From Escherichia phage K1-5, in sequence record NC_008152.1: a DNA stretch of 44,385 bases; one strand, written 5' to 3'. This document shows positions 1-44,385 of the stretch, piece after piece. Position 1 is the stretch's first letter; the number at the start of each line of letters is the position of its first letter. A program made the translations under genes and the position numbers. The notes under the pieces are model-generated. The model was given only the letters and a program-made list of their open reading frames with translations. It was not told where the DNA came from and made no database searches.

Positions 1-234
1 TCGCCCTCGCCCTCGCCGGGTTGTCCCCATAGGGTGGCCTGAGGGAATCCGTCTTCGACGGGCAGGGCTGATGTACTCCTTGTCTAGTACAAGGGAGGCG
101 GAGGGAACGCCTAGGGAGGCCTAGGAATGGCTTAGTGGTGGACAAGGTGATTACCTTAGTGAAGCCTCTTAGTGCATTCCTGAGGCCATTCAGGGCGTTT
201 ATGAGGGATTGACAGGGTGTGAGGGCGTGGGCTA
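1..234. repeat. Left direct terminal repeat (234 bp), identical to 44152..44385
   Basis: First 234 nt (tcgccctcgccctcgccggg...gagggcgtgggcta) recur exactly at the right end in the same orientation; typical terminal redundancy of T7-like genomes. Confidence 0.95.
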
Positions 235-237
235 TCT
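209..237 (+). promoter_or_regulatory. Candidate host sigma70 early promoter (TTGACA -35, weak -10)
   Basis: TTGACA at 209..214, 17-bp spacer, ctatct/tatctg -10-like; weak -10. Confidence 0.25.
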
Positions 238-608
238 GTTCCTTTGCTCCTCACTTCGTTCGTCGCTGCGGTAGCCTGATGTGTACCTTAGGTTATTCCT
301 TGATGGATAGCTTAGGTTAGCCTTAGTGGATTACCTTAGTTAAAGCCTTAGTGCTTCACTTAGTATCAGCTTAGTAGTGTACCTTAGTAAGTCTTAGTGT
401 CTTCTCTTAGTGATTGCACATGCAAGCATGTAAGATGCTAATAGGTCGCGGTCGGCAGACCGCTAAAGAAAGAGAATGGTAATAAGATGCAGTAGGAGGA
501 ACACCAGAAGCCTAGCCAACCTAAGCTATCCTAGCTCTATATCTATTGCTTTTCCTTAGTCTAACACGTTAGACAACCTATCTTATTCTTAGTGATGGTA
601 ACTTAGTG

Positions 609-637
609 TTGACAAGATAATCTTAGTGTAATACTAT
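609..637 (+). promoter_or_regulatory. Candidate host sigma70 early promoter
   Basis: TTGACA 609..614, 17-bp spacer, TACTAT 632..637; upstream of first early ORFs. Confidence 0.4.
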
Positions 638-780
638 GCATCACGTAGGCGGTGCTGAGGCACCTAGTAGCCAGCTAGTAAGGCATACGAAGAGACTAGC
701 GCTTACATTGCTCTTTAACAATTTGCTTAGTGTAACCTATGTATGCCGTGGTTAACTACTTATTGAATGAGGTATTAACT

Positions 781-960
781 ATGACATTAAATAACCGTGA
801 ACTGTCCGTTCTCTTCACTCTGTTGTGCTACATGATTCGTAACAACGAATTACTTACAGATGATGAGTTAGCCTTGTATCACCGCTTTCTTAACGAAGGT
901 TGGACCGATACAGTTAATCAATACCGTAACATGATAGATGAGTTGAGGGAGGGTAAATAA
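781..960 (+). CDS. Hypothetical early protein (59 aa; track ORF begins 739)
   Basis: ORF track 739..960; GAGG RBS 9 nt before ATG 781; stop overlaps next start (TAATG). Confidence 0.4.
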   Translation: MTLNNRELSVLFTLLCYMIRNNELLTDDELALYHRFLNEGWTDTVNQYRNMIDELREGK

Positions 961-1184
961 TGTATCAACATGAGGTATTCTTTGAATCAGCTAGCGAAGC
1001 TATTCGCTTCCGTGATGATATGATGCAAGCTGGTGTAGGCGTTGATGTGTATCACTATTTGATAGATTACGACACTGAATATCACCGAGTTACCTTAGTA
1101 TCTGAGTATGACAACCAAGTCATTACTGAGTATCTAGGCAGTGAAGATTACGATTACGATGAAGTAATCACGACAAATCTCTAA
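960..1184 (+). CDS. Hypothetical acidic early protein (74 aa)
   Basis: ORF with GAGGGAGGG RBS upstream of ATG 960; Asp/Glu/Tyr-rich. Confidence 0.5.
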   Translation: MYQHEVFFESASEAIRFRDDMMQAGVGVDVYHYLIDYDTEYHRVTLVSEYDNQVITEYLGSEDYDYDEVITTNL

Positions 1185-1192
1185 ATTAACTG

Positions 1193-1574: not shown

Positions 1575-1907
1575 ATGGAACGCAATGCTAACGCTTACTA
1601 CAACCTTCTGGCTGCAACTGTTGAAGCATTCAACGAGCGTATTCAGTTTGATGAGATTCGCGAAGGTGATGATTACTCTGATGCACTACATGAGGTTGTA
1701 GACAGCAATGTTCCAGTTTATTACAGCGAAATCTTTACAGTGATGGCTGCTGATGGTATTGATGTTGATTTTGAGGATGCTGGTTTGATTCCTGACACGA
1801 AGGATGTAACCAAGATTCTACAAGCTCGCATCTATGAAGCTCTTTATAATGATGTACCAAATGACAGCGATGTAGTTTGGTGTGAAGGCGAAGAAGAGGA
1901 AGAATAA
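1575..1907 (+). CDS. Ocr-like DNA-mimic anti-restriction protein (T7 gp0.3 homologue)
   Basis: 110 aa, very acidic, ends EGEEEEE; segment VPVYYSEIFTVMAADGIDVDFEDAGLIPDTKDVTKILQARIYEAL closely parallels T7 Ocr as I recall it; GAGGA RBS. Confidence 0.75.
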   Translation: MERNANAYYNLLAATVEAFNERIQFDEIREGDDYSDALHEVVDSNVPVYYSEIFTVMAADGIDVDFEDAGLIPDTKDVTKILQARIYEALYNDVPNDSDVVWCEGEEEEE

Positions 1908-3300: not shown

Positions 3301-5928
3301 ATGCAAGGCCTACACGCTATTCAACTTCAACTTGAAGAAGAAATGTTTAACGGCGGTATCCGTCGCTTTGAAGCGGACCAACAACGCCAGATTGCATCCG
3401 GTAATGAATCAGACACGGCATGGAATCGCCGCTTATTGTCCGAGTTAATCGCGCCAATGGCTGAAGGTATTCAGGCATACAAGGAAGAGTATGAAGGTAA
3501 AAGAGGCCGTGCACCGCGTGCATTAGCTTTCATTAACTGCGTAGAAAACGAAGTGGCAGCATATATCACGATGAAAATCGTTATGGATATGCTGAACACG
3601 GATGTAACCTTGCAGGCTATAGCCATGAATGTAGCTGACCGCATTGAGGACCAAGTACGTTTTAGCAAGCTGGAAGGTCACGCCGCCAAATACTTTGAAA
3701 AAGTTAAGAAGTCACTTAAGGCAAGTAAGACTAAATCATATCGCCATGCGCACAACGTAGCGGTAGTGGCTGAGAAGTCAGTAGCTGACCGTGACGCTGA
3801 TTTCTCCCGCTGGGAGGCATGGCCTAAAGACACCTTGCTGCAAATTGGGATGACCTTGCTTGAAATCTTAGAGAATAGCGTATTCTTCAACGGGCAACCT
3901 GTCTTCCTCCGCACCTTGCGCACTAATGGCGGCAAACATGGTGTTTACTACCTACAGACTAGTGAACACGTAGGTGAGTGGATAACTGCATTCAAAGAGC
4001 ACGTAGCGCAACTGAGTCCTGCCTATGCTCCTTGCGTCATCCCTCCGCGTCCGTGGGTATCACCTTTTAACGGCGGTTTCCACACTGAGAAAGTAGCAAG
4101 CCGTATTCGTCTGGTAAAAGGAAACCGCGAACACGTCCGCAAGCTGACCAAAAAGCAAATGCCAGAGGTTTACAAGGCTGTTAACGCGTTGCAGGCGACT
4201 AAATGGCAGGTTAACAAGGAAGTTTTACAGGTTGTGGAAGACGTCATCCGTCTAGACCTAGGTTATGGTGTACCTTCCTTTAAACCACTCATTGACCGCG
4301 AGAACAAGCCAGCTAATCCAGTGCCGCTAGAATTTCAGCACCTACGGGGCCGTGAACTGAAAGAAATGCTTACGCCGGAACAATGGCAAGCCTTTATCAA
4401 CTGGAAAGGTGAATGTACTAAGCTGTACACCGCTGAAACTAAGCGCGGAAGCAAATCGGCGGCAACCGTTCGCATGGTTGGTCAGGCCCGTAAATATAGC
4501 CAGTTCGACGCAATCTACTTCGTGTATGCACTGGACAGCCGCAGCCGCGTCTACGCGCAATCTAGCACACTCTCACCGCAATCAAATGACTTGGGCAAGG
4601 CCTTGCTCCGTTTTACCGAAGGGCAGCGTCTTGATAGCGCTGAGGCGCTTAAGTGGTTTTTGGTGAACGGGGCTAATAACTGGGGTTGGGATAAGAAAAC
4701 TTTTGACGTGCGCACCGCTAACGTGCTGGATAGTGAATTTCAAGACATGTGCCGCGACATTGCAGCGGATCCGCTGACCTTCACTCAATGGGTAAATGCC
4801 GACTCCCCTTACGGCTTCCTTGCATGGTGCTTTGAATATGCGCGTTATCTGGATGCACTGGATGAAGGCACGCAAGACCAATTCATGACGCACCTCCCAG
4901 TCCATCAAGATGGTAGTTGTTCTGGTATCCAGCACTACAGTGCTATGCTACGCGATGCAGTAGGTGCGAAAGCAGTAAACCTTAAGCCCTCTGACTCTCC
5001 TCAAGATATTTATGGTGCCGTTGCGCAGGTAGTAATTCAGAAGAATTATGCATACATGAATGCAGAGGATGCGGAAACCTTCACTTCTGGCAGCGTGACT
5101 TTAACAGGTGCGGAGCTGCGTAGTATGGCTAGTGCGTGGGATATGATAGGAATCACTCGCGGCCTGACCAAAAAGCCCGTAATGACACTACCTTATGGCA
5201 GCACACGTCTAACCTGCCGTGAGTCAGTGATTGATTATATCGTTGATTTAGAAGAAAAAGAGGCCCAACGGGCTATTGCGGAAGGGCGTACCGCCAATCC
5301 TGTACACCCTTTTGATAATGACCGTAAAGACAGCCTGACACCTAGCGCAGCTTATAACTATATGACAGCTTTAATCTGGCCTTCTATTTCGGAAGTGGTT
5401 AAAGCCCCTATAGTGGCAATGAAAATGATTCGTCAGCTTGCCCGTTTCGCAGCTAAAAGGAATGAAGGCTTAGAGTATACCCTGCCTACTGGCTTCATCT
5501 TGCAACAAAAGATTATGGCTACTGATATGCTCCGCGTATCTACTTGCTTGATGGGAGAAATCAAGATGAGTCTACAGATTGAAACAGACGTAGTGGATGA
5601 AACGGCAATGATGGGCGCTGCTGCTCCTAACTTTGTGCATGGTCATGATGCCAGCCACCTTATCTTAACAGTCTGCGACCTTGTTGATAAAGGGATTACA
5701 TCTATCGCAGTTATTCATGACTCTTTTGGCACTCATGCAGGCCGTACAGCCGACCTTCGTGATAGCTTAAGGGCAGAAATGGTGAAGATGTATCAAGGCC
5801 GTAATGCACTGCAAAGCCTGCTAGATGAGCACGAAGAACGCTGGTTAGTTGATACCGGAATACAAGTACCAGAGCAAGGGGAGTTTGACCTTAACGAAAT
5901 CTTAGTTTCAGACTATTGCTTCGCATAA
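3301..5928 (+). CDS. T7-like single-subunit DNA-directed RNA polymerase
   Basis: 875 aa; [16 protein letters not shown] (motif A), IHDSFGTHA (motif C), C-terminal ...DYCFA; AGGAG RBS. Confidence 0.97.
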
Positions 5929-5936
5929 TATTAATA

Positions 5937-5966
5937 GGCCATTCCTTCGGGAGTGGCCTTTCTTTT
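5937..5966 (+). terminator. Hairpin with UUCG-type loop plus T-run just after the RNAP gene
   Basis: ggccattcc-ttcg-ggagtggcc followed by tttctttt. Confidence 0.55.
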
Positions 5967-6383: not shown

Positions 6384-8372
6384 ATGGCTATTATTCAGAA
6401 TGTACCGTGTCCTGCCTGTCAAAAGAATGGACATGATATTACTGGCAACCATCTCATGATATTTGATGATGGTGCCGGCTACTGTAATCGTGGACACTTT
6501 CATGATAATGGTAGACCTTACTATCACAAGCCGGAAGGTGGCATCGAGATAACCGAGTTATCTATTACTGGCAATATCAAATATACACCTTCTCAATTCA
6601 AAGAAATGGAGAAGGAAGGGAAGATAAGCGACCCTAAATTACGTGCCATCGCACTTGGTGGTATGCGTATGAAAGACCGTTGGGAGGTCATGAATGAACA
6701 AGAAAGGGCAGAGCAAGAAGCAGAGTGGAAACTTGATGTTGAATGGTTCCTCACGCTTAAGCGTAAGAACCTTGTTTCCAGGCACATTCGCGGCGACATT
6801 TGCGCATTGTATGATGTACGTGTTGGGCACGATGAAGAGGGTAGAGTCTCACGGCATTACTATCCGCGCTTCGAAAAAGGTGAGCTAGTAGGCGCTAAGT
6901 GTCGCACATTACCTAAAGATTTTAAGTTTGGTCATTTAGGTAAACTCTTTGGTATGCAAGATCTTTTCGGTATGAATACTTTGTCTCACGTGTTAGACAA
7001 GGGAAGACGAAAGGATTGCTTGCTCATTGTCGGCGGCGAACTGGATGCACTAGCAGCGCAGCAGATGCTCCTTGATTCTGCCAAGGGTACTAAGTGGGAA
7101 GGCCAGCCATACCATGTATGGTCTGTCAACAAAGGCGAGTCTTGCCTTGAAGAGATAGTGCAGAACCGTGAGCATATCGCCCAATTCAAGAAGATTATAT
7201 GGGGTTTTGATGGAGATGAGGTAGGGCAGAAGCAGAATCAGCAAGCGGCTCGCCTGTTTCCTGGTAAATCCTATATCCTTGAATACCCCTCTGGTTGCAA
7301 AGATGCTAACAAGGCATTGATGGCTGGCAAGGCTAAAGAATTTGTAGATGCATGGTTTAATGCCAAGTCATCTGATGAAGTCTTTGGTAGCCAGATTAAA
7401 TCTATCGCATCTCAAAGGGATAAGCTCAAGGCTGCACGTCCAGAGCAAGGACTGTCATGGCCTTGGCCTAAGCTGAACAAGGTAACGCTAGGTATTCGTA
7501 AGAACCAGCTTATCATTGTAGGTGCAGGGTCTGGTGTAGGTAAGACTGAGTTCCTTCGTGAAGTAGTTAAGCACCTCATTGAAGAACACGGTGAATCTGT
7601 AGGCATCATTTCTACAGAAGACCCGATGGTCAAGGTGTCCCGTGCTTTTATCGGCAAGTGGATTGATAAGCGTATTGAGTTACCTCCAACCAACGACCCG
7701 AAAGAAGACGGATACCGTGAGGTGTTCGACTATACCGAGGAAGAAGCTAACGCCGCCATTGATTATGTAGCTGATACAGGTAAGCTGTTTGTAGCTGACC
7801 TAGAGGGTGACTATTCGATGGAAAAGGTAGAGCAAACTTGCCTAGAGTTTGAGGCTATGGGTATTTCTAATATCATCATTGATAACTTAACGGGGATTAA
7901 ATTAGATGAGCGTGCTTTTGGTGGGAAGGTTGGTGCACTTGATGAATGCGTCAAGCGGATTGGTACTATCAAAGACCGACACCCGGTTACTATATTCCTT
8001 GTATCACACCTTACACGTCCTCCGGCAAACCGTACCCAACACGAAGAAGGTGGCGAAGTTATCCTTTCTGACTTCCGAGGCTCAGGCGCTATCGGATTCT
8101 GGGCATCTTACGCCTTGGGGATTGAGCGTAATACAAGAGCTGAAACGCTTGACGAAAGGACTACCACGTACATCTCATGTGTCAAAGACCGCGACCAAGG
8201 TATCTACACTGGAACCAAGGTCATGCTTAAGGGTGACATTCAAACCGGACGTTTAATGGAACCACAAGCCCGTACTAAGTCATTTGATACAGGTGAAGCA
8301 AGGCAACAAGAAGTACCAGATTTACCGGATACTATAGAAGAGACTACCTTCGATGAAGAAAGTGAGTTCTGA
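6384..8372 (+). CDS. DNA primase/helicase (T7 gp4-like)
   Basis: 662 aa; N-terminal Cys4 zinc ribbon (CPACQ...YCNRGH), Walker A GAGSGVGKTEF, acidic C-terminus ...DEESEF. Confidence 0.95.
   Translation: MAIIQNVPCPACQKNGHDITGNHLMIFDDGAGYCNRGHFHDNGRPYYHKPEGGIEITELSITGNIKYTPSQFKEMEKEGKISDPKLRAIALGGMRMKDRWEVMNEQERAEQEAEWKLDVEWFLTLKRKNLVSRHIRGDICALYDVRVGHDEEGRVSRHYYPRFEKGELVGAKCRTLPKDFKFGHLGKLFGMQDLFGMNTLSHVLDKGRRKDCLLIVGGELDALAAQQMLLDSAKGTKWEGQPYHVWSVNKGESCLEEIVQNREHIAQFKKIIWGFDGDEVGQKQNQQAARLFPGKSYILEYPSGCKDANKALMAGKAKEFVDAWFNAKSSDEVFGSQIKSIASQRDKLKAARPEQGLSWPWPKLNKVTLGIRKNQLIIVGAGSGVGKTEFLREVVKHLIEEHGESVGIISTEDPMVKVSRAFIGKWIDKRIELPPTNDPKEDGYREVFDYTEEEANAAIDYVADTGKLFVADLEGDYSMEKVEQTCLEFEAMGISNIIIDNLTGIKLDERAFGGKVGALDECVKRIGTIKDRHPVTIFLVSHLTRPPANRTQHEEGGEVILSDFRGSGAIGFWASYALGIERNTRAETLDERTTTYISCVKDRDQGIYTGTKVMLKGDIQTGRLMEPQARTKSFDTGEARQQEVPDLPDTIEETTFDEESEF
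8320..8340 (+). promoter_or_regulatory. Near-consensus phage promoter inside the 3' end of the primase/helicase gene
   Basis: atttaccggatactatagaag. Confidence 0.45.
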
Positions 8373-9617: not shown

Positions 9618-9770
9618 ATGACTAAGTTTACTATGCAAGACCTCATTAAATTACGTGATGAAATAGAATCACCGGAAGTTAATACAGAGTTTCACTACAT
9701 TGATCCACGAGATAAACGAGAGATTCCTGATTATCAGATTGAGACGGAGTTAATGTATGAAGATTATTGA
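9618..9770 (+). CDS. Small acidic protein (50 aa), below ORF-track cutoff
   Basis: GGGAGG RBS then ATG 9618; stop overlaps the DNA polymerase start. Confidence 0.4.
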   Translation: MTKFTMQDLIKLRDEIESPEVNTEFHYIDPRDKREIPDYQIETELMYEDY

Positions 9771-12579: not shown

Positions 12580-12600
12580 ATTTACTGGACACTATAGAAG
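12580..12600 (+). promoter_or_regulatory. Phage RNAP promoter (perfect consensus)
   Basis: atttactggacactatagaag. Confidence 0.8.
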
Positions 12601-30997: not shown

Positions 30998-31007
30998 TAC
31001 CTAACTC

Positions 31008-31037: not shown

Positions 31038-31061
31038 TATGATAGGCACTATGGAGGAATT

Positions 31062-34000: not shown

Positions 34001-34247
34001 TCTACCTTCCGAACTCATTCAATCACGCTATGAAGCAGGTTTCCAAAGTAAGGGTCTGATTGACCAAATACCTCTGGTTGGCGTTGGTGCAGATGCAGTA
34101 AATCTGGCTAACTCAATCAAGAAGTATGCAGAAGGTGACACAGAAGGTGTAGATATCGCTAAGCGAGCACTCCGTCTTGTGCCACTTACCAATATAATAG
34201 GTGTCCAAAACGCATTGCGTTATGGCTTAGATGAACTGGAGGATTGA
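31062..34247 (+). CDS. Internal virion (core) protein, gp16-like
   Basis: 1061 aa; Gly/Ala-rich hydrophobic segment GWVGSVATIGAAVLDPVGWVAS; synteny. No obvious transglycosylase motif at the N-terminus. Confidence 0.7.
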   Translation: MEQDIKTNWAGYVQSTPEPFSIEAAPVSAPTIRQRNELQEQVLEAKADADILGAVGAAFQNEWLAFGGKRWYDRATADFTPQPDFEIQPEQREALRFKYGTDMMQTITEGVRSEDELNFRIQNADEDLERNKRIAQAGWVGSVATIGAAVLDPVGWVASIPTGGAAKVGLVGRAVRGAIAAGVSNAAIESVLVQGDMTRDLDDIMVALGSGMAMGGVIGAVARGRATKLSEQGDDRAASIVRSADAGDRYVRAVADDSIGAMRVKGAEVLTEGVFDISSKSEDLLKTLQREGNAIDMTPRRWAGTMSALGTVVHSSKDASIRGLGARLFESPQGLGMQKASASLMQNTNLNRLKSADMNRFNDGFDLWLKENNINPVAGHTNSHYVQQYNEKVWEAVRIGMDESTPKSIRMAAEGQQAMYREALALRQRSGEAGFEKVKADNKYMPDIFDSMKARRQFDMHDKEDIIELFSRAYQNGARKIPKEAADEIARAQVNRVADATLTGKLSFEKAMSGQTKAEYEAIMRKAGFSDEEIEKMIEALDNKETRDNISNRAKMSLGLDVTQEYNGIRMRDFMNTNVEELTDNYMKEAAGGAALARQGFSTYQAALNAIDLVERNARNAAKDSKASLALDEEIRQMREGLRLIMGKSIDADPQAISTKMMRRGRDITGVLRLGQMGFAQLGELANFMGEFGIAATTMALGKQFRFTSKALRNGDGFFRDKNLAEVERMVGYIGEDNWLTTKGARPDEFGDVTTVRGMMAHFDQSMNSIRRAQTNLSLFRMAQGSLERMTNRQIALSFIDHLEGKKIIPQKKLEELGLTQEFMTNLQKHYDANSKGSGLLGFDTMPYAMGETLANAIRRKSGLIIQRNFIGDEGIWMNKALGKTFAQLKSFSLVSGEKQFGRGIRHDKIGLAKKTAYGFALGSIVYAAKAYVNSIGREDQDEYLEEKLSPKGLAFGAMGMMSTTAVFSLGGDFLGGLGVLPSELIQSRYEAGFQSKGLIDQIPLVGVGADAVNLANSIKKYAEGDTEGVDIAKRALRLVPLTNIIGVQNALRYGLDELED

Positions 34248-35209
34248 TGAGTTATACTTTCACAGAACATACAGCCAATGGTACGCAAGTCACCTATCCT
34301 TTTAGCTTTGCTGGTAGGGATAAAGGTTATCTTCGTGCCTCAGATGTGATAGTGGAGTCTCTTCAAGGTAACACTTGGATTGAAGTTACATCTGGCTGGC
34401 AACTAACTGGCACGCACCAGATTACTTTTGATGTAGCACCAGTTGCAGGTTTGAAGTTCCGTATTCGAAGGGAAGTACAAAAAGAATATCCATACGCTGA
34501 GTTTGACCGTGGTGTTACCTTGGATATGAAGTCTTTAAATGGTTCTTTCATTCATATACTGGAGATTACACAGGAGTTACTTGACGGGTTTTATCCAGAA
34601 GGATACTTCATTAAACAGAATGTAAGCTGGGGCGGCAATAAGATTACTGATTTGGCTGATGGCACAAATCCGGGAGATGCAGTAAATAAAGGGCAGCTTG
34701 ATGCCATCGACAAGAAGCATACAGATTGGAACGCCAAACAGGACATTGAGATTGCTGGCCTTAAGGCTGGTATGACTTCTGGTATTGCGCACAGAACTGT
34801 TCCTTGGTACACGATAGCCCAAGGTGGTGAGATTTCCGTAAAACCACCTTATGAATTTCAAGATGCACTAGTTTTCCTTAATGGGGTATTGCAGCACCAA
34901 ATTGTAGGCGCATACTCTATAAGCAACAACACTATCACTTTCGCAGAGCCGCTTGTGGCTGGTACAGAGGTGTATGTGCTGATTGGTAGTCGTGTGGCTA
35001 CATCTGAACCTAATATTCAGTTGGAGTTGAACTTTGACTTAGTAGAAGGCCAACAAGTAGTACAGATTGGCTCTGCATTTAAGTACATTGAGGTCTACCT
35101 TGATGGATTATTACAACCTAAACTTGCTTATCAGGTAGACGGTGACATTGTTACTTTCTCAGAAAGAGTACCAGAATGCCGGATGACTGCTAAGATTATC
35201 ACAGCATAA
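34247..35209 (+). CDS. Tail-fibre adaptor protein (homologue of the T7 gp17 N-terminal tail-attachment domain)
   Basis: 320 aa; GNKITDLADGTNPGDAVNKGQLDAI resembles T7 gp17 RRIVNLANAVDDRDAVPFGQL; ATG overlaps upstream stop. Confidence 0.75.
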   Translation: MSYTFTEHTANGTQVTYPFSFAGRDKGYLRASDVIVESLQGNTWIEVTSGWQLTGTHQITFDVAPVAGLKFRIRREVQKEYPYAEFDRGVTLDMKSLNGSFIHILEITQELLDGFYPEGYFIKQNVSWGGNKITDLADGTNPGDAVNKGQLDAIDKKHTDWNAKQDIEIAGLKAGMTSGIAHRTVPWYTIAQGGEISVKPPYEFQDALVFLNGVLQHQIVGAYSISNNTITFAEPLVAGTEVYVLIGSRVATSEPNIQLELNFDLVEGQQVVQIGSAFKYIEVYLDGLLQPKLAYQVDGDIVTFSERVPECRMTAKIITA

Positions 35210-35218: not shown

Positions 35219-35413
35219 ATGATTAACTCCGAACTGGTAGATAGTGGTGTGAAGCTTGCGCCACCTGCACTCATATCAGGTGGGTACTTCCTCGGTATCA
35301 GTTGGGATAATTGGGTGTTAATAGCAACATTCATTTATACCGTGTTGCAAATTGGGGACTGGTTTTATAATAAGTTCAAGATTTGGAGGGAGAAGCGTGA
35401 GCGTACACAATAA
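35219..35413 (+). CDS. Class II holin (T7 gp17.5-like)
   Basis: 64 aa; AAGGAGG RBS; IYTVLQIG with charged C-terminus resembles T7 holin AYTVVQIG...; directly before the small terminase gene as in T7. Confidence 0.75.
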   Translation: MINSELVDSGVKLAPPALISGGYFLGISWDNWVLIATFIYTVLQIGDWFYNKFKIWREKRERTQ

Positions 35414-35696
35414 ACATGCAGCTACAGAGGACGAGGTTGGCATTCTGCATGGTGCTATTACCAAAATCTTCAATAAGAAAGCACAGGCAATACTGGACAC
35501 TATAGAAGAAGACCCTGATGCAGCATTACATTTAGTGTCTGGTAAGGATATTGGTGCGATGTGTAAGTGGGTTCTTGATAACGGCATTACCGCCACACCT
35601 GCTGCACAGCAGGAAGAGTCCAAGTTATCTAAGCGCCTCAAGGCTATCCGAGAGGCATCCAGTGGTAAGATAATTCAATTCACTAAGGAGGATTGA
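35397..35696 (+). CDS. Terminase small subunit (gp18-like)
   Basis: Track ORF 35352; likely GTG 35397 start after GGAGGGAG; directly upstream of the large subunit; assignment by synteny. Confidence 0.55.
   Translation: MSVHNKHAATEDEVGILHGAITKIFNKKAQAILDTIEEDPDAALHLVSGKDIGAMCKWVLDNGITATPAAQQEESKLSKRLKAIREASSGKIIQFTKED
35488..35508 (+). promoter_or_regulatory. Near-consensus phage promoter embedded in the small terminase gene
   Basis: caatactggacactatagaag; 18 of 21 positions match, all mismatches at the 5' edge. Confidence 0.45.
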
Positions 35697-37594
35697 TGGC
35701 TAAGGCAAGAGAATCACAAGCGGAGGCTCTTGCCAGATGGGAGATGCTACAGGAGTTACAGCAGACCTTTCCTTACACCGCGGAAGGTTTGCTTCTCTTT
35801 GCAGATACAGTTATTCATAACTTAATTGCAGGCAACCCTCATCTGATTCGTATGCAGGCGGATATCTTGAAGTTCCTATTTTACGGACACAAGTACCGCC
35901 TCATCGAAGCGCCTCGTGGTATCGCTAAGACAACACTATCAGCAATCTATACGGTATTCCGTATTATTCATGAACCGCATAAGCGTATCATGGTTGTGTC
36001 CCAAAACGCCAAGCGAGCAGAGGAAATCGCAGGTTGGGTAGTTAAAATCTTCCGTGGCTTAGACTTTCTTGAGTTTATGCTGCCGGATATCTACGCTGGG
36101 GACCGTGCATCCGTTAAGGCGTTTGAGATTCATTACACCCTACGTGGTAGTGATAAGTCTCCTTCTGTATCCTGTTACTCAATCGAAGCAGGTATGCAGG
36201 GTGCTCGTGCTGATATTATTCTAGCGGATGACGTAGAGTCGATGCAGAATGCTCGTACGGCAGCGGGCCGTGCCTTGCTTGAGGAGCTGACTAAGGAGTT
36301 TGAATCTATCAACCAGTTTGGGGATATCATTTACCTTGGTACACCTCAGAACGTAAACTCTATCTACAACAACCTACCTGCTCGTGGTTACTCTGTTCGT
36401 ATCTGGACTGCGCGTTACCCTTCAGTAGAGCAAGAGCAATGTTATGGCGACTTCCTTGCACCTATGATTGTTCAAGATATGAAGGACAACCCAGCACTTC
36501 GCTCAGGGTACGGGTTGGATGGTAATAGTGGTGCACCTTGTGCCCCTGAAATGTATGATGATGAAGTCCTGATTGAGAAGGAAATCTCTCAGGGTGCTGC
36601 TAAGTTCCAGCTTCAGTTCATGCTTAACACTCGCATGATGGATGCTGACAGATACCCATTACGCCTGAACAATCTAATCTTCACCTCGTTTGGTACAGAG
36701 GAAGTCCCTGTGATGCCTACGTGGAGTAATGATTCCATAAACATCATTGGTGATGCACCTAAGTATGGTAACAAGCCTACGGATTTCATGTACAGACCTG
36801 TAGCTCGCCCATATGAATGGGGTGCTGTCTCCCGCAAGATTATGTATATTGACCCTGCGGGTGGTGGTAAGAACGGAGATGAGACGGGTGTAGCCATCGT
36901 ATTCCTGCACGGCACATTCATTTATGTGTATCAGTGCTTTGGTGTACCTGGCGGATACCGAGAGTCGTCCCTGAATCGCATTGTGCAGGCCGCAAAGCAG
37001 GCGGGTGTTAAAGAGGTATTCATTGAGAAGAACTTTGGTCATGGCGCGTTTGAGGCGGTAATTAAGCCGTACTTTGAACGAGAGTGGCCTGTAACTCTGG
37101 AAGAGGATTACGCCACCGGACAGAAAGAGTTGCGTATCATTGAGACGCTGGAGCCGCTCATGGCAGCCCATAGGCTTATCTTCAATGCAGAGATGGTGAA
37201 GTCAGACTTTGAGTCGGTACAGCACTATCCGCTTGAACTACGCATGTCCTACAGTCTTTTCAATCAAATGTCGAACATAACGATTGAGAAGAACAGCCTC
37301 CGGCACGATGACCGCCTAGACGCCCTGTATGGCGCTATACGGCAATTAACTTCTCAGATAGACTATGACGAGGTTACACGGATTAATCGCCTCAGAGCGC
37401 AGGAGATGCGCGATTACATCCATGCTATGAACACACCTCATCTACGCAGGGCAATGCTATATGGAGATTACGGTACTGAGCGAAGAGTGACCAACACTTC
37501 CGTAGCGATGCAGCAGCGAGTTTACGGGCAGAACTACCGAAATAAATCGGCAAGCAGAAATACACTTTCTGCAAGGATTTCAAGGACTTATTAA
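35696..37594 (+). CDS. Terminase large subunit (gp19-like)
   Basis: 632 aa; AAGGAGG RBS; deviant Walker A RGIAKTT, Walker B IILADDVE, RNaseH-like nuclease segment IDPAGGGKNGDETGVAI. Confidence 0.9.
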   Translation: MAKARESQAEALARWEMLQELQQTFPYTAEGLLLFADTVIHNLIAGNPHLIRMQADILKFLFYGHKYRLIEAPRGIAKTTLSAIYTVFRIIHEPHKRIMVVSQNAKRAEEIAGWVVKIFRGLDFLEFMLPDIYAGDRASVKAFEIHYTLRGSDKSPSVSCYSIEAGMQGARADIILADDVESMQNARTAAGRALLEELTKEFESINQFGDIIYLGTPQNVNSIYNNLPARGYSVRIWTARYPSVEQEQCYGDFLAPMIVQDMKDNPALRSGYGLDGNSGAPCAPEMYDDEVLIEKEISQGAAKFQLQFMLNTRMMDADRYPLRLNNLIFTSFGTEEVPVMPTWSNDSINIIGDAPKYGNKPTDFMYRPVARPYEWGAVSRKIMYIDPAGGGKNGDETGVAIVFLHGTFIYVYQCFGVPGGYRESSLNRIVQAAKQAGVKEVFIEKNFGHGAFEAVIKPYFEREWPVTLEEDYATGQKELRIIETLEPLMAAHRLIFNAEMVKSDFESVQHYPLELRMSYSLFNQMSNITIEKNSLRHDDRLDALYGAIRQLTSQIDYDEVTRINRLRAQEMRDYIHAMNTPHLRRAMLYGDYGTERRVTNTSVAMQQRVYGQNYRNKSASRNTLSARISRTY

Positions 37595-38345: not shown

Positions 38346-38690
38346 ATGCTTAATAAATACTTCAAGCGTAAAGAGTTTGCTTGCCGTTGTGGGTGCGGTA
38401 CATCCACTGTTGATGCTGAATTACTACAGGTAGTCACAGATGTGCGTGAGCACTTTGGTTCTCCTGTAGTTATCACTTCGGGTCATCGCTGTGCTAAGCA
38501 CAATGCCAATGTAGGTGGCGCTAAGAACTCCATGCATCTTACTGGTAAGGCTGCTGACATTAAAGTGTCTGGCATATTACCTTCTGAAGTGCATAAGTAT
38601 CTTACTAGCAAATACCAAGGCAAGTATGGTATAGGTAAGTATAACTCCTTCACTCACATCGATGTACGGGATGGTTGTGCGCGATGGTAA
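38346..38690 (+). CDS. Endolysin, peptidase M15-type zinc peptidase
   Basis: Track ORF 38292; ATG 38346; SGHRCAKHNANVGGAKNSMHLTGKAADI matches the M15 H..D...H zinc-binding signature. Confidence 0.8.
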   Translation: MLNKYFKRKEFACRCGCGTSTVDAELLQVVTDVREHFGSPVVITSGHRCAKHNANVGGAKNSMHLTGKAADIKVSGILPSEVHKYLTSKYQGKYGIGKYNSFTHIDVRDGCARW

Positions 38691-38798
38691 GATGTGTTGA
38701 ATGGTGTGAGCGTATGGTTGCCCAAGCTGCCGAGGATGGCAACTATGATGACTGGAAGAACTACTCTGACTTGTTAGCTCAATGGAAAGGGAGATGCA

Positions 38799-38948
38799 AT
38801 GAAAAAGCTGTTTAAGTCTAAGAAGGTTGTAGGTGCACTGGTTGCACTTGTTATTGCTCTTGTTTCTGTAGGTCTTGGTGTAGACCTTGGCTCTGGCACG
38901 GAATCCTCTGTGACAGATGTGGTCTGCCAAGTGATCACCTGTGAATAA
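38799..38948 (+). CDS. Small membrane protein (49 aa) in lysis cassette
   Basis: AGGGAG RBS; MKKLFKSKKVVGALVALVIALVSVGLGV has one TM helix; between endolysin and spanin candidates. Confidence 0.35.
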   Translation: MKKLFKSKKVVGALVALVIALVSVGLGVDLGSGTESSVTDVVCQVITCE

Positions 38949-39162
38949 GTTTCTAGAAGTTCTGGCAGGTCTTATTGGCCTGCTTGTCTCTGCTAAGAAG
39001 AAACAAGAAGAGAAGGAGGCACAAAGTGAAGCGAATCATGTTAGTGACAACCCTTCTGATTGGTTCGCTGACCACTTCCGGGTGTCAGCAGGCGTTACCA
39101 GAGAAAGCAATGGTGAAACCTCTGAGGCCGACGCTGACGGCAGTTTACGAGGTAGACGATAA
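38941..39162 (+). CDS. Candidate i-spanin (Rz-like), 73 aa
   Basis: GTG start in track; N-terminal TM FLEVLAGLIGLLVSA then charged region; an o-spanin-like ORF starts inside it. Short for an i-spanin. Confidence 0.35.
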   Translation: MNKFLEVLAGLIGLLVSAKKKQEEKEAQSEANHVSDNPSDWFADHFRVSAGVTRESNGETSEADADGSLRGRR

Positions 39163-39235
39163 GGTCTGCTTTAGTAAGCCTGACGCTACAAAACTTGGTT
39201 TGTACATTCTCTCGCTAGAACGCGGATACAATTAA
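39026..39235 (+). CDS. Candidate o-spanin (Rz1-like) lipoprotein
   Basis: Track ORF 38975; GTG 39026 6 nt after AAGGAGG (or ATG 39038); signal MKRIMLVTTLLIGSLTTSGC with lipobox-like TSGC. Confidence 0.5.
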   Translation: MKRIMLVTTLLIGSLTTSGCQQALPEKAMVKPLRPTLTAVYEVDDKVCFSKPDATKLGLYILSLERGYN

Positions 39236-39264: not shown

Positions 39265-39285
39265 ATTTACTGGACACTATAGAAG
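39265..39285 (+). promoter_or_regulatory. Phage RNAP promoter (perfect consensus) upstream of tailspike cassette
   Basis: atttactggacactatagaag. Confidence 0.8.
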
Positions 39286-39366
39286 AGGTAAGATAGCGCC
39301 GTTCTTTTGAGCGGCCTATTACTAGCCAATCTTCATAGGGAGGGTTGGAAAGTAATAGGAGATAGC

Positions 39367-41265
39367 ATGGCTAAATTAACCAAACCTAATACTGAAGGAA
39401 TCTTGCATAAAGGACAATCTTTGTATGAGTACCTTGATGCGAGAGTTTTAACATCAAAGCCGTTTGGTGCTGCAGGTGACGCCACTACTGATGATACGGA
39501 GGTTATAGCTGCTTCATTAAACTCTCAGAAAGCTGTCACAGTCTCAGATGGTGTATTCTCTAGCTCTGGTATTAACAGTAATTACTGTAACTTAGACGGC
39601 AGGGGTAGTGGCGTGCTAAGTCACCGTTCAAGTACAGGTAACTACTTAGTATTTAACAATCTACGTGCAGGTCGCTTAAGTAATATTACGGTAGAAAGTA
39701 ATAAGGCGACTGATACAACTCAGGGACAGCAGGTATCCCTTGCTGGTGGAAGTGATGTTACTGTAAGTGACGTTAACTTCTCAAACGTTAAAGGTACTGG
39801 TTTCAGTTTAATCGCATACCCTAATGATGCGCCACCTGATGGACTTATGATTAAAGGCATTCGAGGTAGCTATTCCGGCTATGCTACTAATAAGGCAGCC
39901 GGATGCGTACTTGCTGATTCCTCAGTTAACTCCCTCATAGATAACGTCATTGCTAAGAACTACCCTCAGTTCGGAGCAGTAGAGTTGAAAGGTACAGCCA
40001 GTTACAACATAGTCAGTAATGTTATAGGGACAGATTGCCAGCATGTAACTTACAACGGCACTGAAGGGCCAATAGCTCCTTCTAATAACCTTATCAAGGG
40101 GGTGATGGCTAATAACCCTAAGTATGCAGCGGTTGTTGCAGGCAAAGGAAGTACGAACTTAATCTCAGACGTGCTCGTAGATTACTCAACTTCTGATGCT
40201 AGGCAGGCTCATGGTGTTACAGTAGAGGGTTCTGATAACGTCATAAATAATGTGCTTATGTCAGGATGTGATGGTACTAACTCTTTAGGACAAGGGCAGA
40301 CTGCTACAATTGCACGCTTTATAGGTACAGCTAATAACAACTATGCGTCTGTATTTCCTAGCTACAGTGCTACAGGTGTTATTACTTTCGAATCCGGCTC
40401 TACCCGTAACTTCGTAGAGGTAAAGCACCCTGGCAGGAGAAACGACCTTCTCAGTTCTGCTAGTACTATTGACGGTGCAGCTACTATTGACGGCACTAGT
40501 AATAGTAACGTAGTGCACGCACCTGCCTTAGGGCAGTACATAGGTAGTATGTCAGGTAGGTTCGAATGGCGGATTAAGTCCATGTCACTCCCTTCAGGCG
40601 TTCTTACTTCTGCTGATAAGTACAGAATGCTTGGAGATGGTGCTGTGTCATTAGCTGTAGGTGGGGGCACTTCTTCTCAAGTTCGCCTATTTACTTCTGA
40701 TGGTACTTCTCGGACAGTGTCCCTCACCAACGGTAACGTGCGTCTTTCTACCAGTAGCACAGGCTTTTTGCAGTTAGGTGCTGATGCAATGACCCCAGAC
40801 AGTACTGGTACATACGCATTAGGTTCCGCCAGCCGAGCATGGTCTGGCGGTTTTACTCAAGCAGCATTCACTGTTACCTCAGATGCTCGGTGTAAAACAG
40901 AACCTCTTACTATCTCAGATGCCTTACTGGATGCTTGGTCTGAAGTTGACTTTGTGCAGTTTCAGTATTTGGATCGTGTTGAGGAGAAGGGTGCAGACTC
41001 AGCTAGATGGCACTTCGGTATCATCGCTCAGCGAGCTAAGGAGGCTTTCGAACGTCACGGTATAGATGCACATCGCTATGGCTTCTTGTGCTTCGACAGT
41101 TGGGATGATGTATACGAGGAAGATGCCAATGGCTCTCGTAAACTGATTACACCAGCAGGTTCCCGCTACGGTATTCGTTACGAGGAAGTACTGATATTAG
41201 AGGCTGCGTTGATGCGGCGGACTATTAAGCGTATGCAGGAAGCACTAGCTTCCCTGCCTAAGTAA
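39367..41265 (+). CDS. Tailspike 1: beta-helix polysaccharide depolymerase (K5-lyase-like) with C-terminal self-cleaving chaperone domain
   Basis: Track ORF 39307; ATG 39367 gives 632 aa; repetitive beta-helix-like rungs (NVIAKN, NIVSNVIG, NVINNVLMS); C-terminal SDARCK ... HFGIIAQRAKEAF resembles the peptidase S74 intramolecular chaperone. Confidence 0.7.
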   Translation: MAKLTKPNTEGILHKGQSLYEYLDARVLTSKPFGAAGDATTDDTEVIAASLNSQKAVTVSDGVFSSSGINSNYCNLDGRGSGVLSHRSSTGNYLVFNNLRAGRLSNITVESNKATDTTQGQQVSLAGGSDVTVSDVNFSNVKGTGFSLIAYPNDAPPDGLMIKGIRGSYSGYATNKAAGCVLADSSVNSLIDNVIAKNYPQFGAVELKGTASYNIVSNVIGTDCQHVTYNGTEGPIAPSNNLIKGVMANNPKYAAVVAGKGSTNLISDVLVDYSTSDARQAHGVTVEGSDNVINNVLMSGCDGTNSLGQGQTATIARFIGTANNNYASVFPSYSATGVITFESGSTRNFVEVKHPGRRNDLLSSASTIDGAATIDGTSNSNVVHAPALGQYIGSMSGRFEWRIKSMSLPSGVLTSADKYRMLGDGAVSLAVGGGTSSQVRLFTSDGTSRTVSLTNGNVRLSTSSTGFLQLGADAMTPDSTGTYALGSASRAWSGGFTQAAFTVTSDARCKTEPLTISDALLDAWSEVDFVQFQYLDRVEEKGADSARWHFGIIAQRAKEAFERHGIDAHRYGFLCFDSWDDVYEEDANGSRKLITPAGSRYGIRYEEVLILEAALMRRTIKRMQEALASLPK

Positions 41266-41272
41266 GCAACAG

Positions 41273-41294
41273 GCAGTGCGTAAGCACTGCTTTT
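41273..41294 (+). terminator. Intrinsic-type terminator in the 85-nt spacer between tailspike genes
   Basis: gcagtgc-gtaa-gcactgc then tttt. Confidence 0.6.
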
Positions 41295-41350
41295 AGCGCA
41301 ACTTTTCTTAAAGGTTATCACGGTGGTAGCCTTTCAGAAAAGGAGGTTAC

Positions 41351-43786
41351 ATGATTCAAAGACTAGGTTCTTCATTAGTTAAATTCAAGAGTAAAATAGC
41401 AGGTGCAATCTGGCGTAACTTGGATGACAAGCTCACCGAGGTTGTATCGCTTAAAGATTTTGGAGCCAAAGGTGATGGTAAGACAAACGACCAAGATGCA
41501 GTAAATGCAGCGATGGCTTCAGGTAAGAGAATTGACGGTGCTGGTGCTACTTACAAAGTATCATCTTTACCTGATATGGAGCGATTCTATAACACCCGCT
41601 TCGTATGGGAACGTTTAGCAGGTCAACCTCTTTACTATGTGAGTAAAGGTTTTATCAATGGTGAACTATATAAAATCACGGATAACCCTTATTACAATGC
41701 TTGGCCTCAAGACAAAGCGTTTGTATATGAGAACGTGATATATGCACCTTACATGGGTAGTGACCGTCATGGTGTTAGTCGTCTGCATGTATCATGGGTT
41801 AAGTCTGGTGACGATGGTCAAACATGGTCTACTCCAGAGTGGTTAACTGATCTGCATCCAGATTACCCTACAGTGAACTATCATTGTATGAGTATGGGTG
41901 TATGTCGCAACCGTCTGTTTGCCATGATTGAAACACGTACTTTAGCCAAGAACAAACTAACCAATTGTGCATTGTGGGATCGCCCTATGTCTCGTAGTCT
42001 GCATCTTACTGGTGGTATCACTAAGGCTGCAAATCAGCAATATGCAACAATACATGTACCAGATCACGGACTATTCGTGGGCGATTTTGTTAACTTCTCT
42101 AATTCTGCGGTAACAGGTGTATCAGGTGATATGACTGTTGCAACGGTAATAGATAAGGACAACTTCACGGTTCTTACACCTAACCAGCAGACTTCAGATT
42201 TGAATAACGCTGGAAAGAGTTGGCACATGGGTACTTCTTTCCATAAGTCTCCATGGCGTAAGACAGATCTTGGTCTAATCCCTAGTGTCACAGAGGTGCA
42301 TAGCTTTGCTACTATTGATAACAATGGCTTTGTTATGGGCTATCATCAAGGTGATGTAGCTCCACGAGAAGTTGGTCTTTTCTACTTCCCTGATGCTTTC
42401 AATAGCCCATCTAATTATGTTCGTCGTCAGATACCATCTGAGTATGAACCAGATGCGTCAGAGCCATGCATCAAGTACTATGACGGTGTATTATACCTTA
42501 TCACTCGTGGCACTCTTGGTGACAGACTTGGAAGCTCTTTGCATCGTAGTAGAGATATAGGTCAGACTTGGGAGTCACTGAGATTTCCACATAATGTTCA
42601 TCATACTACCCTACCTTTTGCTAAAGTAGGAGATGACCTTATTATGTTTGGTTCAGAACGTGCAGAAAATGAATGGGAAGCAGGTGCACCAGATGATCGT
42701 TACAAGGCATCTTATCCTCGTACCTTCTATGCACGATTGAATGTAAACAATTGGAATGCAGATGATATTGAATGGGTTAACATCACAGACCAAATCTATC
42801 AAGGTGACATTGTGAACTCTAGTGTAGGTGTAGGTTCGGTAGTAGTTAAAGACAGCTACATTTACTATATCTTTGGTGGCGAAAACCATTTCAACCCAAT
42901 GACTTATGGTGACAACAAAGGTAAAGACCCATTTAAAGGTCATGGACACCCTACTGATATATACTGCTATAAGATGCAGATTGCAAATGACAATCGTGTA
43001 TCTCGTAAGTTTACATATGGTGCAACTCCGGGTCAAGCTATACCTACTTTCATGGGTACTGATGGAATACGAAATATCCCTGCACCTTTGTATTTCTCAG
43101 ATAACATTGTTACAGAGGATACTAAAGTTGGACACTTAACACTTAAAGCAAGCACAAGTTCCAATATACGATCTGAAGTGCAGATGGAAGGTGAATATGG
43201 CTTTATTGGCAAGTCTGTTCCAAAGGACAACCCAACTGGTCAACGTTTGATTATTTGTGGTGGAGAAGAGACTTCGTCCTCTTCAGGTGCACAGATAACT
43301 TTGCACGGCTCTAATTCAAGTAAGGCTAATCGTATCACTTATAACGGAAATGAGCACCTATTCCAAGGTGCACCAATCATGCCTGCTGTAGATAACCAGT
43401 TTGCTGCTGGTGGACCTAGTAACCGATTCACTACCATCTACCTAGGTAGTGACCCTGTTACAACTTCAGATGCTGACCACAAGTACAGTATCTCTAGTAT
43501 TAATACCAAGGTGTTAAAGGCTTGGAGCAGGGTTGGTTTTAAACAGTATGGTTTGAATAGTGAAGCAGAGAGGGACCTTGATAGCATACACTTCGGTGTC
43601 TTGGCTCAGGATATTGTAGCTGCTTTTGAAGCTGAAGGGTTGGATGCCATTAAGTATGGAATTGTGTCCTTCGAAGAAGGTAGGTACGGTGTGAGGTATA
43701 GTGAAGTTCTAATACTAGAGGCTGCTTATACTCGTTATCGTTTAGACAAGTTAGAGGAGATGTATGCCACTAATAAAATCAGTTAA
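41351..43786 (+). CDS. Tailspike 2: endosialidase (endo-N-acetylneuraminidase) with C-terminal self-cleaving chaperone domain
   Basis: 811 aa; AGGAGG RBS; two Asp-boxes SGDDGQTW and SRDIGQTW; C-terminal SDADHK ... HFGVLAQDIVAAFEAEG parallels the C-terminus of tailspike 1. Confidence 0.85.
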   Translation: MIQRLGSSLVKFKSKIAGAIWRNLDDKLTEVVSLKDFGAKGDGKTNDQDAVNAAMASGKRIDGAGATYKVSSLPDMERFYNTRFVWERLAGQPLYYVSKGFINGELYKITDNPYYNAWPQDKAFVYENVIYAPYMGSDRHGVSRLHVSWVKSGDDGQTWSTPEWLTDLHPDYPTVNYHCMSMGVCRNRLFAMIETRTLAKNKLTNCALWDRPMSRSLHLTGGITKAANQQYATIHVPDHGLFVGDFVNFSNSAVTGVSGDMTVATVIDKDNFTVLTPNQQTSDLNNAGKSWHMGTSFHKSPWRKTDLGLIPSVTEVHSFATIDNNGFVMGYHQGDVAPREVGLFYFPDAFNSPSNYVRRQIPSEYEPDASEPCIKYYDGVLYLITRGTLGDRLGSSLHRSRDIGQTWESLRFPHNVHHTTLPFAKVGDDLIMFGSERAENEWEAGAPDDRYKASYPRTFYARLNVNNWNADDIEWVNITDQIYQGDIVNSSVGVGSVVVKDSYIYYIFGGENHFNPMTYGDNKGKDPFKGHGHPTDIYCYKMQIANDNRVSRKFTYGATPGQAIPTFMGTDGIRNIPAPLYFSDNIVTEDTKVGHLTLKASTSSNIRSEVQMEGEYGFIGKSVPKDNPTGQRLIICGGEETSSSSGAQITLHGSNSSKANRITYNGNEHLFQGAPIMPAVDNQFAAGGPSNRFTTIYLGSDPVTTSDADHKYSISSINTKVLKAWSRVGFKQYGLNSEAERDLDSIHFGVLAQDIVAAFEAEGLDAIKYGIVSFEEGRYGVRYSEVLILEAAYTRYRLDKLEEMYATNKIS

Positions 43787-43914
43787 GCAAGCTGCTGTAC
43801 TCCAGAACACAGAAGAGCTTATTCAATCAGGACGTGACCCTAAGCAGGCTTATGCCATTGCCAAGGATGTTCAACGTCGTGCCATGAAGAAACCTTCTGC
43901 ATCTTCTGCGTAAG

Positions 43915-43975
43915 CAGGTTAATATCTTAGTATAAACAAGGGCAGACTTAGGTTTGTCCTTAGTGTATTCCAAAG
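43915..43975. repeat. Three CTTAG(T/G) repeats immediately left of the right terminal repeat
   Basis: tcttagtat, acttaggtt, ccttagtgt at about 43925, 43946, 43958. Confidence 0.5.
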
Positions 43976-43983
43976 GAGGTAAC

Positions 43984-44112
43984 ATGCTGAAAGATGGTTG
44001 GGTTTCATATGACCCTACAGACCCTAAGAATTGGCTACAGGTTATCGCTATAGCTTGTGCAGGTAGCCTATTGGCTGCCCTGATGTATTCATTATGGATG
44101 TACACAAAGTAA
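43984..44112 (+). CDS. Small membrane protein (42 aa) at right genome end
   Basis: AAAGGAGG RBS 5 nt before ATG; VIAIACAGSLLAALMYSLWM is a TM helix; ends about 40 bp before the terminal repeat. Confidence 0.4.
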   Translation: MLKDGWVSYDPTDPKNWLQVIAIACAGSLLAALMYSLWMYTK

Positions 44113-44151
44113 CCAAAGTCAAAATTTTGATGTAGGCGTGTGTCAGCTCTC

Positions 44152-44385
44152 TCGCCCTCGCCCTCGCCGGGTTGTCCCCATAGGGTGGCCTGAGGGAATC
44201 CGTCTTCGACGGGCAGGGCTGATGTACTCCTTGTCTAGTACAAGGGAGGCGGAGGGAACGCCTAGGGAGGCCTAGGAATGGCTTAGTGGTGGACAAGGTG
44301 ATTACCTTAGTGAAGCCTCTTAGTGCATTCCTGAGGCCATTCAGGGCGTTTATGAGGGATTGACAGGGTGTGAGGGCGTGGGCTA
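44152..44385. repeat. Right direct terminal repeat (234 bp)
   Basis: Exact copy of 1..234 read by eye; window ends exactly at the repeat end. Confidence 0.95.

Follow-up and report, generated by a model that had tools for sequence, protein, structure and literature searches.

Sequence analysis of the Escherichia phage K1-5 genome: terminal repeats, promoters, RNA polymerase specificity and tail-spike modules

Introduction

Escherichia phage K1-5, whose genome is known and published, is an SP6-like podovirus with two capsule-degrading tail spikes; it is a well-studied reference phage for dual K1/K5 capsule specificity, and serves as the model in work on tail-spike cassettes and adaptors. Both of its enzymes sit on an adaptor, which gives the phage its K1 and K5 host range (PMC5380687; the literature on the role of the adaptor, gp37, is summarised in the same source). 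Here, a stretch of DNA of 44,385 bp was analysed, to which we refer in its full length as the window, with a focus on its terminal repeats, its promoters and RNA polymerase (RNAP), and its two tail-spike genes with the 85-nt spacer between them. With a probability of about 0.97, it is best explained as the complete linear genome of K1-5, which would function as a lytic podovirus of the T7 supergroup and owe its host range to the two spikes. All coordinates are those of the window and refer to the + strand unless stated otherwise.

Of the described systems, phage K1E (NC_007637) is 92-93% identical over ~93% of the window, with which it has the promoter consensus, adaptor and 811-aa endosialidase in common. 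It differs in having a 111-aa open reading frame (ORF) instead of the K5 lyase at the first spike position, a spacer of 67 nt, a terminal repeat of 288 bp, and a terminase large subunit (TerL) split by a homing endonuclease. SP6 (NC_004831, Zindervirus) has the same gene order, an RNAP that is 85% identical, syntenic promoters, conserved tail-spike leader and spacer modules, and the motif ATCTGTT at the repeat boundary; it differs in the promoter bases -12 to -10 (GGT vs CTG in K1-5), in a residue of the RNAP (Arg746 vs Ser747), in unrelated tail-spike bodies, and in a 174-bp repeat. T7 (NC_001604) is comparable in its single-subunit RNAP (35% identical), unidirectional transcription, terminal repeats with a class II signal directly after the left one, a terminator after the capsid gene, and a matching order of the replication, head, tail and internal-protein genes. 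In contrast to T7, the spikes of K1-5 are encoded after the terminase at the right end and a separate adaptor replaces the gp17 fibre; homologues of the protein kinase and the amidase-lysozyme are missing at the T7 positions, and the ligase-like gene comes later.

Identity of the genome

The window begins and ends exactly with a 234-bp direct terminal repeat, without flanking bases on either side. Exact-sequence look-ups were performed for 23 of its proteins, encoded by genes 3, 5, 6, 7, 9, 13, 16, 23, 24, 27, 29, 30, 31, 33, 34, 35, 36, 37, 40, 43, 46, 47 and 48, and all of them were identical to GenBank/RefSeq entries of Escherichia phage K1-5. Among these are the RNAP (AAL86891.1/YP_654105.1), the capsid protein (AAR90073.1), the gp37 adaptor (AAR90079.1), the K5 lyase gp46 (AAG59821.1/YP_654147.1) and the K1 endosialidase gp47 (AAG59822.1/YP_654148.1), as well as two forms unique to K1-5, gp5 (62 aa) and gp27 (175 aa). 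For fifteen of the 23, a single contig is the only source on record, with a size of 44,385 bp, which is the length of the window and the one that an earlier note on this DNA had given for K1-5. Thirteen of the 23 proteins alone make up ~60% of the genome, and no difference from the K1-5 record was detected in the proteins looked up.

In a megablast search against 50,697 phage records, a comparison of the kind that the earlier note had suggested, and in subsequent local alignments, high-identity relatives of the SP6 group were found. The nearest other genome in this collection was that of AAPEc6 (NC_047769), with ~95-96% identity; several unannotated Vectrevirus genomes were also among the best hits, and K1E was at 92-93%; window coverage and identity in the local alignments were 99% and 95% for AAPEc6, 93% and 92% for K1E, and 70% and 76% for SP6. 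The earlier note had proposed a complete SP6-like podovirus genome, probably that of K1-5 or of a near relative. As AAPEc6 is only ~95-96% identical, we prefer K1-5 itself over a near relative and, judging from the protein matches, assign the window to Vectrevirus K15, Molineuxvirinae (GenBank AY370674 / RefSeq NC_008152).

The organisation of the window is that of an SP6-like phage. It carries 50 genes on the + strand with valid start and stop codons and Shine-Dalgarno-like sequences, covering 91.3% of its length. In a mechanical ORF list, all ORFs of more than 300 aa are on this strand, and the GC skew is positive in 43 of 44 1-kb windows and near zero in the remaining one, as expected for transcription in one direction. 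The AAPEc6 proteome is collinear on the window as judged by tblastn, and the annotations of AAPEc6, K1E and SP6 share the gene order, which bears out the claim that all strong ORFs lie on the + strand in the order of the T7 supergroup. Membership in the SP6-like phages is indicated by this collinearity, including the gp37 adaptor, and by the position of the spikes downstream of the terminase and lysis genes; that in the T7 supergroup (Autographivirales) by an early single-subunit RNAP, a linear genome with direct terminal repeats, and genes on one strand.

For a genome that is already known, the value of the analysis is that of a control: a complete phage genome, with its repeats, promoters and both tail-spike genes, was correctly identified by reading the raw sequence. 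Four observations made on the side may be of use to engineers of phage host range or of orthogonal RNA polymerases: the class II signal at the repeat boundary of four phages, the covarying spacer hairpin, the Ser/Arg difference in the RNAP specificity loop, and the duplication in gp27.

Phage promoters, terminators and polymerase specificity

The promoter consensus proposed earlier, ATTTACTGGACACTATAGAAG, occurs in four exact copies in the window and, with up to 3 mismatches, at 11 sites. All of them lie on the + strand, and chance alone would yield 0. With up to 5 mismatches, the number of + strand sites rises to 14, and ATTTACTGGACACTATAGAAG is precisely their majority consensus. The exact copies are located at 12580..12600, 14590, 22852 and 39265, and the near-consensus sites from the mismatch scan at 2014, 2323, 6020, 6204, 8320, 9010, 13352, 17755, 35488 and 37593. 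Together, they precede gp5, gp6, gp8 (a tandem pair), gp10, gp10.5, gp15, gp16, gp18, gp23, the capsid gene, TerL, gp41 and the lyase gene. Thirteen of the 14 sites are syntenic in AAPEc6 and K1E, the site at 2323 being present in K1-5 only, and SP6 has sites of its own consensus at the matching positions; SP6-type promoters (core GACACTATAGAAG) are thereby present at syntenic positions in the window. The promoter had been described as SP6-like with a divergent upstream specificity region, and the two consensus sequences indeed differ solely at positions -12, -11 and -10. The SP6 consensus used for that description is found exactly in the SP6 genome, at the position syntenic with the capsid promoter of K1-5.

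The predicted cognate polymerase is gp7, a single-subunit RNAP of 875 aa (3301..5928; exact AAL86891.1) with the Pfam families RNA_pol and RPOL_N, whose catalytic motifs align with those of T7 RNAP. Following the comparison with SP6 and T7 RNAP that had been suggested, its specificity loop was placed at residues ~738-766. In the segment equivalent to the T7 loop, there are six differences between K1-5 and SP6, of which the non-conservative one, aligned with T7 Asn748, is Ser747 (K1-5, K1E, AAPEc6) vs Arg746 (SP6), in line with the differences between the promoters. In work on the T7 and T3 polymerases, Asn748 reads the bases -10 and -11. By alignment with this residue, the Ser/Arg difference is most likely the cause of the difference between the K1-5 and SP6 promoters at -12 to -10. 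This type of promoter has functional support from two sides: an SP6-related RNAP transcribes in vitro from the promoter TATTTACTGGACACTATAG (PMC13029058), and K1E RNAP, the specificity loop of which is identical to that of K1-5, was used with the K1E promoter in an expression system (PMC6412113).

Three terminator-like hairpins were detected. The first (5936..5959), with a T-run, a folding energy of -18.2 kcal/mol and a z-score of -5.0, is situated directly 3' of the RNAP gene; the second (15093-15120), also with a T-run, follows gp18; and the third (24141..24167), with TCTTTTTG, follows the capsid gene at the position of Tphi of T7, which is annotated immediately 3' of gene 10. For early transcription by the host RNA polymerase, consensus scans yielded a sigma-70-like promoter candidate at 609..637 (TTGACA-17-TACTAT, 10/12 matches) and a second one at 1193-1221. 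Just 3' of the RNAP gene, the segment 6001..6224 contains two copies of the 19-nt palindrome-containing repeat TGTCTCACATGTGAGACTT, 181 bp apart, each directly 5' of a phage promoter (6020-6040 and 6204-6224). By analogy to the tandem promoters phi1.1A/B at the primary origin of T7, this segment is a candidate replication-origin region.

The adaptor and the two tail spikes

The adaptor gp37 (34247..35209, 320 aa, exact AAR90079.1) carries the T7 tail-fibre N-terminal domain (Pfam PF03906). A TTG at 34244 was rejected as its start; the ATG at 34247 yields the exact K1-5 protein.

The first spike, gp46 (39367..41265, 632 aa, exact AAG59821.1), aligns over residues 1-505 to the K5 lyase structure PDB 2X3H (E = 0), followed by Pfam PF13884 at 505-565, the C-terminal chaperone domain Peptidase_S74. 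With its similarity to a solved structure and the C-terminal intramolecular chaperone domain, gp46 is predicted to be a K5 lyase spike of the KflA type. An upstream TTG at 39307, the start in the mechanical ORF list, was discarded for the ATG at 39367, which again yields the exact K1-5 protein. The same lyase body was also observed as an 843-aa protein in genomes of ~40 kb.

The second spike, gp47 (41351..43786, 811 aa, exact AAG59822.1), matches the five Pfam families End_N_terminal, End_beta_propel, End_beta_barrel, End_tail_spike and Peptidase_S74, all above their cut-offs, and the endoNF structures PDB 1V0E and 3GVL align to its residues 38-705. By these matches, its architecture is that of a phage endosialidase of the endoNF/endoNE type with a C-terminal chaperone domain; the C-terminal domains of gp46 and gp47 are ~32% identical. 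The end of the lyase gene at 41265 and the start of the 811-aa ORF at 41351 leave a spacer of 85 nt (41266..41350), exactly as the earlier note had counted it.

The spacer between the spike genes and the leader before them

Both spike genes are preceded by a structured element. Upstream of gene 46, a promoter of exact consensus (39265; +1 at 39282) is followed by a structured 5' leader (39265..39366 with the promoter; z-score -4.7). The promoter and the 85-nt leader are conserved with SP6 except for the specificity bases, while the spike bodies are unrelated. The leader (39282-39366) has a spacer-like architecture of different sequence, in which a short GC hairpin precedes a longer one that reaches down to the Shine-Dalgarno sequence. 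In the spacer itself, hairpin 1 (41271-41292) is followed by UUUU, and hairpin 2 (41302-41342) abuts the Shine-Dalgarno sequence GGAGG. Promoter-consensus scans revealed no phage promoter in the spacer, and gene 47 is predicted to be co-transcribed with gene 46 from the promoter at 39265.

The spacer as a whole folds with a z-score of -5.6; individually, the hairpins have energies of -17.1 and -19.7 kcal/mol and, against shuffled sequences, z-scores of -3.5 and -5.6, respectively. For the analysis of covariation, 13 distinct versions of the spacer were compared, from K1-5, AAPEc6, K1E, SP6, IMG/VR contigs and one myovirus. In hairpin 1, all six pairs are kept across the 13 sequences, three of them with double compensatory changes (e.g. 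GCAGTGC/GCACTGC to GCGCGGC/GCCGCGC). Compensatory changes with no pair broken point to selection on structure and not to mere sequence homology, and by this measure hairpin 1 is a selected RNA structure. Its stem comprises 9 pairs, and its U-run is just 4 nt long (the class I criterion being at least 5); the terminator scan of the + strand made no call here. Most likely, it would act as a leaky terminator or as a stabiliser of the 3' end. Hairpin 2 and the GGAGG after it are nearly invariant in the set and show no compensatory pairs.

As an alternative, the spacer could lack an RNA function and be conserved as DNA homology, a recombination linker for the swapping of tail-spike cassettes between phages. 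Such a role would account for the ~90% identity that the spacer and the initial codons of the gene behind it retain between K1-5 and SP6 amid unrelated spike genes, for a relic of the spacer after a tail-spike-like gene of the phi92-like myovirus alia, and for a hairpin 2 that is conserved without compensatory pairs. It does not account for the pairing of hairpin 1, which is kept through the double changes described above, for folding far better than that of shuffled sequences in both hairpins, or for the leader of the first spike gene, which is alike in architecture and unlike in sequence. We therefore regard the absence of any RNA function as rather unlikely; a linker role and an RNA role are, however, mutually compatible.

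A further possibility concerns hairpin 2 and the analogous hairpin in the leader of gene 46, which might be RNase III processing sites, comparable to the R-sites of T7, that split the lyase and endosialidase messages and have no translational role. The long hairpins are imperfect stems of ~17-19 bp, near the length that RNase III requires, and are extremely conserved in intergenic positions on a polycistronic phage transcript; yet they match no Rfam family and hairpin 2 is free of covariation, and in our view such a role is unlikely.

Taken together, the modules before both spike genes, each with a short GC hairpin, a hairpin of ~17-19 pairs that abuts the Shine-Dalgarno sequence, and a docking peptide conserved at the N-terminus, might form a portable RNA element. 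It would set the relative dosage of the two spikes through incomplete termination, through cleavage by RNase III or by masking the ribosome-binding site, and at the same time provide a junction for the exchange of receptor-binding cassettes. This idea is put forward tentatively and with low confidence; if it is true, the cassette model known for K1-5, K1E, K5 and SP6 would gain a level of regulation.

Two observations in other phages touch on these modules. In alia (MN850632, a 147-kb phi92-like myovirus), a degraded copy of the spacer is found at 4001-4077 after the tail-spike-like gene alia_23, with both hairpins kept and the Shine-Dalgarno sequence and the ATG lost. The sequence suggests a cassette transfer between phage families; a donor was not found, the closest alia_23 bodies being those of T7-like phages at 47% identity, with no SP6-like donor among them. 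In SP6 (NC_004831), the RefSeq start of gp50 at 41774 appears to be an internal ATG. A conserved ATG 30 nt upstream (41744) gives MIQRLGSSLVK, the N-terminal docking peptide of K1-5 gp47.

Genome ends

The left direct terminal repeat (1..234) is identical to the right one (44152..44385), and 234 bp is the longest exact match between the genome ends, so that repeat length and position are as previously claimed. In the database records, the repeats of SP6 and K1E have the lengths given above, and the record of AAPEc6 shows none. ATCTGTT, the core of the T7-type class II signal for pausing and termination of RNAP, occupies the inner border of the left repeat (234..240), which is the position of a concatemer junction. 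This is the sole + strand copy in the window, and the motif is likewise found at the repeat boundary in SP6 (174-180), K1E (288-294) and T7 (161-167). For T7, the class II signal of the concatemer junction has been described (bioRxiv 10.1101/2021.01.11.426313; PMC11617373); by analogy, ATCTGTT at the K1-5 junction may take part in the processing of concatemers.

Short repeats of the CTTAGTG / CCTTAGG type were observed at 150-750, adjoining the left terminal repeat and partly inside it; at 284-411, they recur in tandem with a period of 23-24 nt. They resemble the short-repeat arrays beside the terminal repeat of T7.

Proposed course of infection

From homology and the established biology of T7 and SP6, the following course can be proposed. 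Host RNA polymerase would transcribe the left end, including the genes for the Ocr-like protein and the phage RNAP, as far as the hairpin after gene 7. The phage RNAP would then transcribe rightward from its ~14 promoters, and the phage primase/helicase and DNA polymerase would replicate the DNA to concatemers. These would be cut and packaged by the terminase under regeneration of the terminal repeats, possibly, as in T7, with involvement of the class II pause signal located at the junction of the concatemers. Host range would derive from the two spikes on the gp37 adaptor, the K5 lyase gp46 and the K1 endosialidase gp47, each with a C-terminal chaperone domain that is presumably self-cleaving. 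Both spike genes would be read from the promoter at 39265 through the conserved, promoterless spacer, in which hairpin 1 would serve as leaky terminator or 3'-end stabiliser, and hairpin 2 together with the Shine-Dalgarno sequence would drive translation of the endosialidase.

K1-5 or a close relative

The genome that comes closest to the window is that of AAPEc6, which shares with K1-5 its two spikes, the 85-nt spacer between them, the set of promoters and the specificity loop of the RNAP. As it carries both spikes, the dual-spike arrangement is not unique to K1-5. AAPEc6 differs from K1-5 in a gene for an HNH endonuclease located between those of the terminase, in a different gp5, in a gp27 of 153 aa without a duplication, and in a gp36 of 1102 aa vs 1061 aa; its capsid protein is 84% and its Ocr 60% identical. 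It was isolated on E. coli O45:H10, and its spikes, at 39571-43990 of NC_047769, are 99.4% (lyase) and 98.3% (endosialidase) identical.

That the window represents such a very close dual-spike relative of equal length (of the AAPEc6, ULINTec7 or VEc3 type) is highly improbable: several Vectrevirus genomes do have both an endosialidase and a spike of the K5-lyase type, with the 85-nt spacer, the AAPEc6 spikes are nearly identical, and TerL, gp33, gp34 and gp43 of the window are exactly shared with other phages, but the 15 proteins recorded on a single contig include the K1-5-unique 175-aa gp27, and even AAPEc6, the best genome in the collection, stays at the identities given above for the genome and the capsid protein.

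Several points weigh against the reading of the window as a complete and functional K1-5 genome. Eight of the 23 exact proteins do not discriminate, as gp33, gp34, TerL and gp43 are also recorded under other named phages and four more on several contigs. For the non-coding DNA and the remaining 27 genes, identity with K1-5 is extrapolated from the proteins that were looked up. Sigma-70-like matches are not enriched in the window over shuffled sequences, and the early promoters are candidates by position. The functional steps as a whole, namely early promoters, terminators, origin, Ser747, spacer hairpins and ATCTGTT, rest on homology and position. With these points taken into account, we retain the assignment to K1-5 at the probability given in the Introduction.

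Gene inventory and minor observations

The left end of the genome comprises small early genes, among them gp3 for an Ocr-like DNA-mimic anti-restriction protein (1575..1907; Pfam PF08684, E 9.6e-31; exact match to K1-5 gene 3). The RNAP gene is followed by those for the primase/helicase gp9 (6384..8372; exact AAL84819.1 of K1-5) and the DNA polymerase gp13 (9757..12297, 846 aa; exact AAR90053.1 of K1-5). Next in order are an exonuclease, endonuclease VII, a phosphoesterase, a nucleotide-kinase-like and a ligase-like protein, and the GNAT acetyltransferase gp27 (19630..20157). The middle part encodes the portal protein gp29 (20375..21925; exact K1-5 match), the scaffold, the major capsid protein gp31 (22925..24133; exact AAR90073.1 of K1-5) and, within 24188..34247, the tail tube proteins A and B (gp32, gp33) and three internal virion proteins (gp34, gp35 and gp36), as identified by tblastn. 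In this segment, gp33, gp34, gp35 and gp36 are exact K1-5 matches, and gp35 contains a lysozyme domain (Pfam Phage_lysozyme). After the gp37 adaptor come a holin-like protein, the small (gp39) and large (gp40) terminase subunits (35397..37594, without a homing endonuclease insert), two small paralogues, and a lysis cluster (38346..39235) of endolysin gp43, a small ORF, holin gp44 and the Rz-like gp45, assigned by tblastn to AAPEc6, with gp43 as an exact match; the two tail spikes conclude the order.

The longest ORF on the - strand (267 aa, 23333..24136), antisense to the capsid gene, was rejected as a gene. Comparable frames that are open on the antisense strand, with lengths varying from 187 to 335 aa, are present in the capsid genes of AAPEc6, K1E, SP6 and T7 as well, and the ORF is therefore taken as a shadow frame, probably one of codon usage. 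The window contains no detectable tRNA or tmRNA genes, and no Rfam families at the gathering threshold.

In its exact K1-5 form, gp27 contains an imperfect tandem duplication of 66 bp (19715-19780 and 19781-19847), which adds 22 aa; the first copy is one base short, and the overall reading frame is kept. With this, gp27 has 175 aa in K1-5, against 153 aa in the other members of its cluster except for one fragment of 52 aa. The duplication was not found in AAPEc6, K1E, SP6 or any other cluster member, and may be specific to this stock or a sequencing artefact.

The gene for gp5 (62 aa, 2100-2288) has no counterpart in AAPEc6, K1E and SP6, where the locus is unaligned. It is flanked by the promoter-like site at 2014-2034 on one side, and by a hairpin (2295-2318) and the K1-5-only promoter-like site at 2323-2343 on the other, and resembles a small inserted expression cassette. 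The difference in gp36 (31062-34247) between K1-5 and AAPEc6 is a deletion of 41 aa after residue 628, and the form of 1061 aa is frequently met with in metagenomic contigs of Vectrevirus.

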